DNA of 64,000 nucleotides from a virus (IMGVR_UViG_2513237361_000012:1-64000), one strand, 5' to 3'; numbered from the stretch's first letter, positions 62,622 through 63,974 are shown. The notes: a model not told the origin generated them from the letters alone. Numbers and translations: made by a program.

Positions 62622-63799
62622 GCACAAAATTTTATACCCTGCTGACGGATATTGGCGCGGCGAAACTTGCCAGCGCCGCCGCGCTCGGTGTGCCGCTAAA
62701 AATTACCCATATGGCGGTGGGCGATGGTGGCGGAACATTGCCGACGCCAGACTCAAAGCAGACTGTACTGGTAAATGAGAAACGCCGGGCTGCGCTGAAT
62801 ATGCTCTATATCGACCCGCAGAACAGCAGCCAGATTATTGCTGAACAGGTGATCCCTGAAAACGAGGGCGGTTGGTGGATACGTGAAGTGGGCCTGTTTG
62901 ATGAGTCCGGAGCATTGATTGCCGTGGGCAACTGCCCGGAAAGCTATAAGCCGCAACTGGCTGAAGGCAGCGGGCGCACCCAGACCGTGCGCATGGTGCT
63001 GATTACCAGCAGTACGGACAATATCACCCTGAAAATCGACCCTGCTGTAGTGCTGGCAACCCGTAAATACGTGGATGATGAAGTCCTGGAATTAAAGCTG
63101 TATGTGGATGACCAGATGAGAAACCACATTGCCGCACAAGATCCTCATACCCAGTATGCGCAGAAACATAATCCGACATTTACCGGAGAACCAAAAGCGC
63201 CGACGCCTGCAGCAGGAAATAACACCACGCGGATTGCGACCACTGAGTTTGTTCAGGCCGCTATTACTGCTCTGATTAACGGTGCGCCAGCCACGCTGGA
63301 CACACTGAAAGAAATTGCCGCAGCCATTAACAATGACCCGAAATTCAGTACCACCATTAACAATGCGCTGGCACTAAAAGCACCGCTGTCGAGTCCGGCA
63401 CTCACCGGAACGCCAACAGCACCTACTGCGGCACAGTCGGTCAACAATACACAGATTGCCACTACAGCTTTTGTGAAATCAGCGATTGCAGCAATGGTGG
63501 GTTCTGCACCTGCGGCACTGGATACACTGAACGAACTGGCGGCGGCGCTGGGGAATGACCCGAACTTTGCCACGACAATGCTTAATGCACTGGCAGGTAA
63601 ACAACCGCTGGACAATACGCTGACTAATTTGAGTGGAAAGGATGTAGCTGGTCTTCTCACATACCTTGGTTTGGGAGAAGCTGTTGCAGTGCCACAGCGT
63701 CCTGGCTTTTCGGAGAAAAGTCTTTCAGGCCAAGCTGCTTACGATAGGCATCCCACCAACGGGAAAGAAGCTGGTAACGTCCGGCGGCTGTTGATTTGA
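62618..63799 (+). CDS. H: Tail fiber protein H-like, truncated with a foreign 3' end
   Basis: N-terminal about 360 aa match P2/186 gpH pattern incl. two conserved repeat blocks; last about 35 codons read through antisense lambdoid R sequence. Confidence 0.7.
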   Translation: MSTKFYTLLTDIGAAKLASAAALGVPLKITHMAVGDGGGTLPTPDSKQTVLVNEKRRAALNMLYIDPQNSSQIIAEQVIPENEGGWWIREVGLFDESGALIAVGNCPESYKPQLAEGSGRTQTVRMVLITSSTDNITLKIDPAVVLATRKYVDDEVLELKLYVDDQMRNHIAAQDPHTQYAQKHNPTFTGEPKAPTPAAGNNTTRIATTEFVQAAITALINGAPATLDTLKEIAAAINNDPKFSTTINNALALKAPLSSPALTGTPTAPTAAQSVNNTQIATTAFVKSAIAAMVGSAPAALDTLNELAAALGNDPNFATTMLNALAGKQPLDNTLTNLSGKDVAGLLTYLGLGEAVAVPQRPGFSEKSLSGQAAYDRHPTNGKEAGNVRRLLI

Positions 63800-63974
63800 G
63801 TTTTGGGTTTAGCGTGACAAGTTTGCGAGGGTGATCGGAGTAATCAGTGAATAGCTCTCCGCCAACAATGACGTCATAACCATGATTTCTGGTTTTCTGA
63901 CGTCCGTTATCAGTTCCCTCTGACCACGCCAGCATATCGAGGAACGCCTTACGTTGATTATTGATTTCCACCAT
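63657..63974 (-). pseudogene. R: Lambdoid endolysin R, 5' fragment (transglycosylase), truncated
   Basis: First about 98 aa match lambda R (MVEINNQRKAFLDMLAWSEGTDNG...) by recall; homology ends at about 63681. Confidence 0.7.

Follow-up and report, generated by a model that had tools for sequence, protein, structure and literature searches.

Invertible DNA segments of the Din family, such as G of phage Mu (Gin), C of P1 (Cin), P of e14 (Pin) and those of the P2 family, have a 26-bp crossover site within a tail fibre gene. In sister prophages of the P2 family, this site is accompanied by a partner site, alternative cassettes, fibre-assembly genes and an invertase. Cin and Gin are also said to recombine at secondary 'quasi' sites, as reportedly described by Iida and Hiestand-Nauer in the 1980s. 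Quasi-site recombination leaves hybrid sites, since the strands are exchanged at the central 2 bp. Aberrant prophage excision, which gives rise to lambda gal and bio transducing phages, and prophage decay by deletion join a point within a lambdoid prophage to a point in adjacent DNA with minimal or no homology, and yield a truncated, defective prophage. Chromosomal inversions between prophages, such as those in E. coli O157 and Streptococcus, are products of homologous recombination of similar segments; they split two prophages and leave halves of different phages abutting each other.

At the locus described here, in Escherichia marmotae TW09308, the tail fibre gene H of a 186-like prophage is joined to the oppositely oriented endolysin gene R of a lambdoid prophage. 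The fibre gene contains a 26-bp site like those of the Din-family segments, but only one site is left, no partner, cassette or invertase is within reach, and antisense endolysin sequence stands in the place of the cassette. As in quasi-site recombination, a prophage invertase site is joined to unrelated DNA; however, the TW09308 site is whole and the join lies at an outer edge. Minimal homology and a truncated, defective prophage are shared with lambda gal and bio excision, whereas the partner in TW09308 is another prophage, met head to head. The locus resembles the inter-prophage inversions in that two prophages are split and halves of different phages abut, but the partners have no homology at the join. 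The whole is best explained, we think with good probability, by a single illegitimate recombination that fused two prophages head to head, both of which are defective.

The two prophages of the TW09308 locus

The stretch of DNA analysed (hereafter the window) is 64,000 nucleotides long, and the sequence to its right was covered for a further 10 kb. The exact products of both truncated genes, H' and R', are encoded in AEME01000001.1 (GCA_000208565.2), the record of E. marmotae TW09308, a cryptic clade V strain from a Michigan freshwater beach; in this record the junction lies at about 3,986,204. The window opens with a fragment of ybjI (1-306). A Mu-like prophage of ~36 kb (307-36250) is inserted in this gene with a 5-bp target duplication, ATATC, and the rest of ybjI, ybjJ and rcdA follow from 36251 to ~38600 and are ~90% identical to E. 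coli. The Mu-like prophage has genes for Mu A and B transposition, Gam, a DUF935 portal, a sheath and a 1054-aa tail fibre. It is just 94-96% identical to its best E. coli relatives, and its transposase allele is also found in a 31.9-kb Logan contig of ERR12450820.

The left ~25 kb of the 186-like prophage (38601-63681, plus strand) is kept, with 9 mismatches in ~25 kb against the prophage of E. coli NCTC8623. Its attL core, ATAAATTTCAGGCAACAAAAAAACCAT (38601-38627, plus strand), adjoins rcdA and matches as a direct repeat, at 25 of 27 positions, the attR core of NCTC8623, which adjoins ogr/ybjL. The identity to NCTC8623 rises from ~90% to 99.96% at 38624. The gene content kept consists, in the first part, of a DUF4917 cargo gene, int, CI, CII, fil, dam, A, a tum-like gene and a retron Ec67-type reverse transcriptase (RT) gene and, in the second part, of Q P O N M L X, lysis genes, R S V W J I and the constant part of H. 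CI, CII (CP76), Fil, the DinI/Tum-like gene, GPA and the retron are the markers of its 186-like identity. Since only 9 mismatches in 25 kb separate it from the complete prophage of NCTC8623 at the same attB, while the flank is only ~90% identical, the prophage arrived whole and recently. As judged from the sequences, this points to one and the same phage having passed between E. coli and E. marmotae very recently.

Two cargo positions are seen in this prophage. The first, between the replication and portal genes, is occupied by the retron Ec67-family RT/endonuclease gene (49513-51342, plus strand) and the gene for a 352-aa protein of unknown function (47871-48929, minus strand), a position like that in the classic retron-Ec67 prophage. 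The TW09308-specific allele of the 352-aa protein is also present in three Logan runs. The second, between attL and the integrase gene, is held by the DUF4917 gene (38837-39820, minus strand), which is possibly a defence gene.

The first reading of this DNA, made from the sequence only, had proposed that the 186-like prophage appears to lack its distal part. This is supported: the 10 kb that follow on the right contain no attR and none of Hv, G, invertase, FI, FII, E, T, U, D or ogr, and a second copy of the attL core is absent from both the window and the 10 kb to its right. In comparison with the NCTC8623 prophage, ~9.6 kb (Hv through ogr, plus attR) is missing at the locus. A complete P2/186-like prophage has the late genes to D, ogr, attL and attR; the element of TW09308, which is without the tail part, D, ogr and attR at this locus, is incomplete and therefore defective.

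The same reading had joined the prophage to a lambdoid remnant and had placed the 3' end of holin gene S at the window edge; the sequence past 64000 bears out both points. Rightward from the junction, the lambdoid early region follows backwards, as R', S, Q, the nin region, P (DnaB-type), O, cII, cro, cI, N and sieB. The 3' end of S, a holin gene of the lambda family, occupies 63958-64000 (minus strand), and the gene call continues past the window so that S as a whole corresponds to 63958-64281 in window numbering. The truncated lambda-type endolysin gene R' (63657-63974, minus strand) encodes 105 aa. Codons 1-98 (63682-63974) are derived from R, and the last seven, LLPNQGM, together with the stop codon come from the invertase site read in antisense. 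Over residues 1-98 the product is almost the same as lambda lysozyme (PDB 1AM7 and 3D3D), with a match reaching residue 99/100 at E = 4e-64. Intact relatives of R have 158 aa, and R', without the C-terminal 60 residues, falls short of a full-length lambda R lytic transglycosylase. A search for relatives close enough to the lambdoid remnant to indicate its attB gave only mosaic matches. The lambdoid element at this locus is severed from Rz and from all morphogenesis genes and is consequently defective. Neither the 186-like nor the lambdoid element of TW09308 should thus be counted as an intact prophage.

The junction and the invertase crossover site

The truncated tail fibre gene H' (62618-63799, plus strand) encodes 393 aa, with PF12571 over residues 1-150. 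Codons 1-355 are derived from H and are followed by 38 read-through codons, which are the antisense of R, and a stop codon. The sequence from 62600 to 63681 is 100% identical to H of the P2-like prophage of NCTC8623, which runs 108 codons beyond the match. The intact sister H has 463 aa, or 528 aa when the segment is flipped. H' is without the receptor-binding end, and its exact 393-aa product is recorded only in TW09308.

Three-way alignment of the window, NCTC8623 H and intact R located the junction at 63680-63682, and a Logan contig spans it, reaching to window position 63644. The H-derived sequence stops at 63680/63681, in codon 355, and the R-derived sequence begins at 63681/63682, in codon 98 of R, so that the join can be read as ...GGGAGAAG(C)|TGTTGCAG. 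The two homologies abut within 1-2 bases and overlap by 0-1 base, and the alignment contains no third sequence between the H and R parts at 63680-63682. Intact lambdoid R and S genes share 98-99.4% identity with the window from 63678/63682 to 64000. The E. coli H genes that diverge from the window at 63680-63683 number in the thousands. Microhomology was considered as the basis of the join and was rejected, since only 0-1 base is shared with either orientation of the NCTC8623 sister cassette. The same junction was absent from 5426 complete E. coli genomes, the GTDB species representatives, IMG/VR and the JGI metagenomes; it is therefore a lineage-specific event.

These alignments also refine what the sequence-only reading had claimed about the breakpoint. 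That the homology of H ends here was right, but its end had been set near codon 358 (~63690), about three codons further than codon 355 at 63681. The loss of R homology after ~98 residues at ~63681 was exact, with R-derived codons 1-98 running from 63682. The suggestion that both genes are cut at one point holds to within 1-2 bases, and alignment of both sides to relatives, which had been proposed as a check, has the two parental homologies meeting at 63680-63682. The counter-possibility raised at the time, that H and R end naturally at this place, does not agree with the intact relatives, in which H continues for 108 codons and R extends to 158 aa.

The H-derived sequence ends beside an orphan crossover site of the Gin/Cin/Pin type. 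This 26-bp site (63654-63679), which reads TTCTCCCAAACC-AA-GGTATGTGAGAA on the minus strand, is composed of two imperfect inverted half-sites of 12 bp that flank a central AA/TT. It matches TTCTCNNAAACCAAGGTTTNNGAGAA on the minus strand with 1 mismatch, where 0 matches are expected by chance, and the NCTC8623 prophage has the identical site. The site encodes LGLGE and is situated inside the fibre gene, at the boundary of its constant and variable parts. A 27-nt inverted repeat reaches 63680. The junction thus falls at the end of this repeat, 1-2 bp outside the inner border of the site, and R-derived DNA starts where a cassette would normally start. In sister prophages, cassettes of several families begin directly after GGGAGAA(G). 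That the break falls at the border of an invertase site is newly noticed here and was not part of the sequence-only reading. No second crossover site exists in the window or in the 10 kb to its right, and no resolvase-family gene is called within 10 kb to the right of H'.

In sister P2-like prophages, an inverted partner site is located 1.6-1.9 kb away and adjoins an invertase gene. The sister invertase has 188 aa with PF00239 and PF02796, and matches Gin (PDB 3UJ3) at E = 4e-93. The RefSeq record of NCTC8623, NZ_LR134234.1, is labelled complete and circular, but its ends overlap untrimmed and the prophage occurs twice, over ~20 kb. One copy has the 1612-bp segment between the sites as the exact reverse complement of the other, with the same flanking sequence in both. 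The occurrence of both orientations means that the site functions in a prophage sharing 99.96% identity with that of TW09308. One of the end copies in the NCTC8623 record is full of frameshifts.

Two further observations concern cassettes at such sites. A Logan protein (176 aa) of another phage has the cassette of NCTC8623 H, ARYIIQRGANANG…, on a different constant part, unlike the H constant region, and again the change takes place at LGLGE. Evidently, as these sequences suggest, different tail-fibre genes trade cassettes at the crossover site. In another record (L075, 2664-3752, minus strand), a P2-like H stops 8 codons after the site (…LGLGEGAQGDVVP*), and ~1.9 kb without a long fibre ORF lies between H and the invertase gene; this is probably a decayed or frameshifted cassette.

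Origin of the junction

Since the join has 0-1 base of homology, illegitimate recombination is the best-supported class of mechanism, and we infer that the event belongs to it. A complete 186-like phage, nearly identical to that of NCTC8623, would first have integrated by rcdA. One non-homologous event with an overlap of 0-1 base would then have joined H to R. The distal ~9.6 kb of the 186-like prophage, which comprises the variable fibre cassettes, the fibre-assembly genes, the invertase, sheath, tube and tape measure genes, U, D, ogr and attR, would have been removed or relocated, and the same event would have parted the distal part of R, Rz and the morphogenesis genes from the lambdoid early region. 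The end on the H side was perhaps set by the site, through a bound invertase or a quasi-palindrome. If the event was an inversion, a second junction of reverse-complemented Hv with the distal part of R would be expected, near ...CATATCTG|ATTAAAGAGCG.... In a search for this reciprocal junction with the sister variable H cassette, all homologues found keep the site (VGLGE) upstream, and no product came from AEME01000001, a weak negative since fragments are merged into 90% clusters.

How far the site took part is the first point to be weighed. As a sub-case of the preferred explanation, the H-side end may have been made or fixed by the site and then joined without homology to a break in R, either because an exonuclease or a replication fork was halted at bound invertase or through processing of the quasi-palindrome. 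The precision of the break sits uneasily with chance, the target being ~5 bp in a gene of 1.4 kb: the junction lies 1-2 bp past the site, and only ~0.4% of random breaks in the gene would land within +/-2 bp of where the repeat ends. The site may therefore have had a role. The activity of the site in the NCTC8623 sister prophage is consistent with such a role, and as single-stranded DNA the site region is predicted to fold into a hairpin of -10 kcal/mol (z = -3.7). However, the predicted stem in the parent runs past the junction, so that the break is not at its base, and the R side is without structure (z = -0.15). Among the ~106 IMG/VR sites with downstream sequence, moreover, no second junction with foreign DNA was convincing, the probably decayed cassette of L075 being the only oddity, and coincidence is possible in a single event. 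We know of no precedent for illegitimate recombination defined by the edge of a site, and we regard a causal role of the site as unlikely. Breakage at a hairpin base was considered as a separate candidate and rejected; the H site does fold, but its stem passes the break, and R is unstructured.

The preferred explanation, fusion by illegitimate recombination, presupposes that the junction is real. It could also be an assembly chimera, in which a contig ending at the edge of the inverted repeat was wrongly abutted to a contig ending in R. This would fit a 2011 Illumina/454 assembly, where a segment present in both orientations in the culture gives rise to a contig end. The H-side break is indeed a frequent contig end: the 90%-identity cluster of H' contains hundreds of 'partial' proteins of 345-354 aa, and 21 of 127 site instances in IMG/VR have <30 nt downstream, at the end of the stretch, which we read as contig ends. 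In two IMG/VR scaffolds (L055 at ~1890 and L106 at ~640), a single 'N' comes right after GGGAGAAG, at the same base as the junction. Unrelated DNA follows this 'N', and both scaffolds are contigs concatenated where the inverted repeat has its inner edge. Such a pattern is what a mis-join would be expected to leave. In addition, AEME01000001.1 is one 4.81-Mb 'contig' from a draft-era project, the join has no microhomology, and it is unique to this record among the collections searched.

Evidence against a chimera comes from another read set. The Logan contig SRR29904084_271775 (6907 bp) is 100% identical to the TW09308 sequence and crosses the junction by 38 nt, these 38 nt of H-derived sequence being contiguous with 6.87 kb of the lambdoid region. 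This evidence consists of an assembled contig that stops 38 nt past the junction, in a run whose contig ids go into the millions. A de Bruijn assembly cannot join sequences sharing 1-4 bases unless reads carry the join. As to whether the run SRR29904084 is TW09308 itself, the signs are mixed: it also holds the TW09308-specific allele of the 352-aa protein of the 186-like prophage, whereas the ORF at the ybjI'::Mu boundary of TW09308 was not found in it; no mention of the run was found in the literature searched. The R-side breakpoint (query ~701) is also not among the common mosaic boundaries of E. coli lambdoid lysis cassettes, which lie at query 64, 277, 408, 524, 546-585, 976, 1088 and 1347 in 5104 E. 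coli records. Because SRR29904084 both spans the junction and carries the TW09308 allele, a mis-join is very probably not the cause and the junction very probably exists in the genome. A chimera, the alternative that the earlier reading had offered, is accordingly quite unlikely. TW09308 is a worked example of a join that looks suspicious, in a place where contigs classically end, and yet can be genuine.

The weakest explanation, a crossover by the invertase between the fibre site and a quasi-site in R that produced a large inversion or deletion, is most improbable in view of the position of the junction. It draws on the fact that a Gin-like serine invertase is typical of such prophages and is active in the sister, and on the look-alike of the inner half-site in R described below. 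Such invertases do use degenerate secondary sites, as is known for Cin. However, exchange would be expected at the central dinucleotide (63666-63667), while both half-sites are those of the parental H and R-derived DNA begins only at 63681/63682, which puts the join at a distance of 13-14 bp from that dinucleotide. Compared in register, the intact R parent (L002, L003) agrees with the site at 5 of 26 positions, as counted by eye, and has GC instead of TT at the central positions. Both half-sites being intact and R having no site-like sequence, the junction is therefore not an invertase crossover, and this candidate was ruled out on the position of the junction and the 5/26 similarity. The look-alike in R, CTTTTCGGAGAA at ~63706-63717, shares 9 of 12 bases with the inner half-site GGTTTGGGAGAA, is not accompanied by a matching second half, and is 25-35 bp inside the kept R sequence, away from the junction; its likeness is probably due to chance.

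Meaning for the rearrangement of prophages

Apart from the coincidence with the site edge, the TW09308 junction is a case of ordinary prophage decay and fusion. A broader idea would be that the inner edge of a Din-invertase crossover site is a preferred end-point of illegitimate recombination, which we consider very unlikely. If it were true, bound invertase might stop end resection or a replication fork, and foreign DNA would be placed where a fibre cassette begins, which would be a route for invertible loci to capture sequence. It would also represent a predictable way in which prophages break, with the TW09308 junction as the first observed instance. The break at the site edge is one data point, and it would matter only if the pattern recurred. 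In conclusion, the TW09308 locus provides one further case of prophages rearranging by illegitimate recombination, in a single environmental lineage of E. marmotae.
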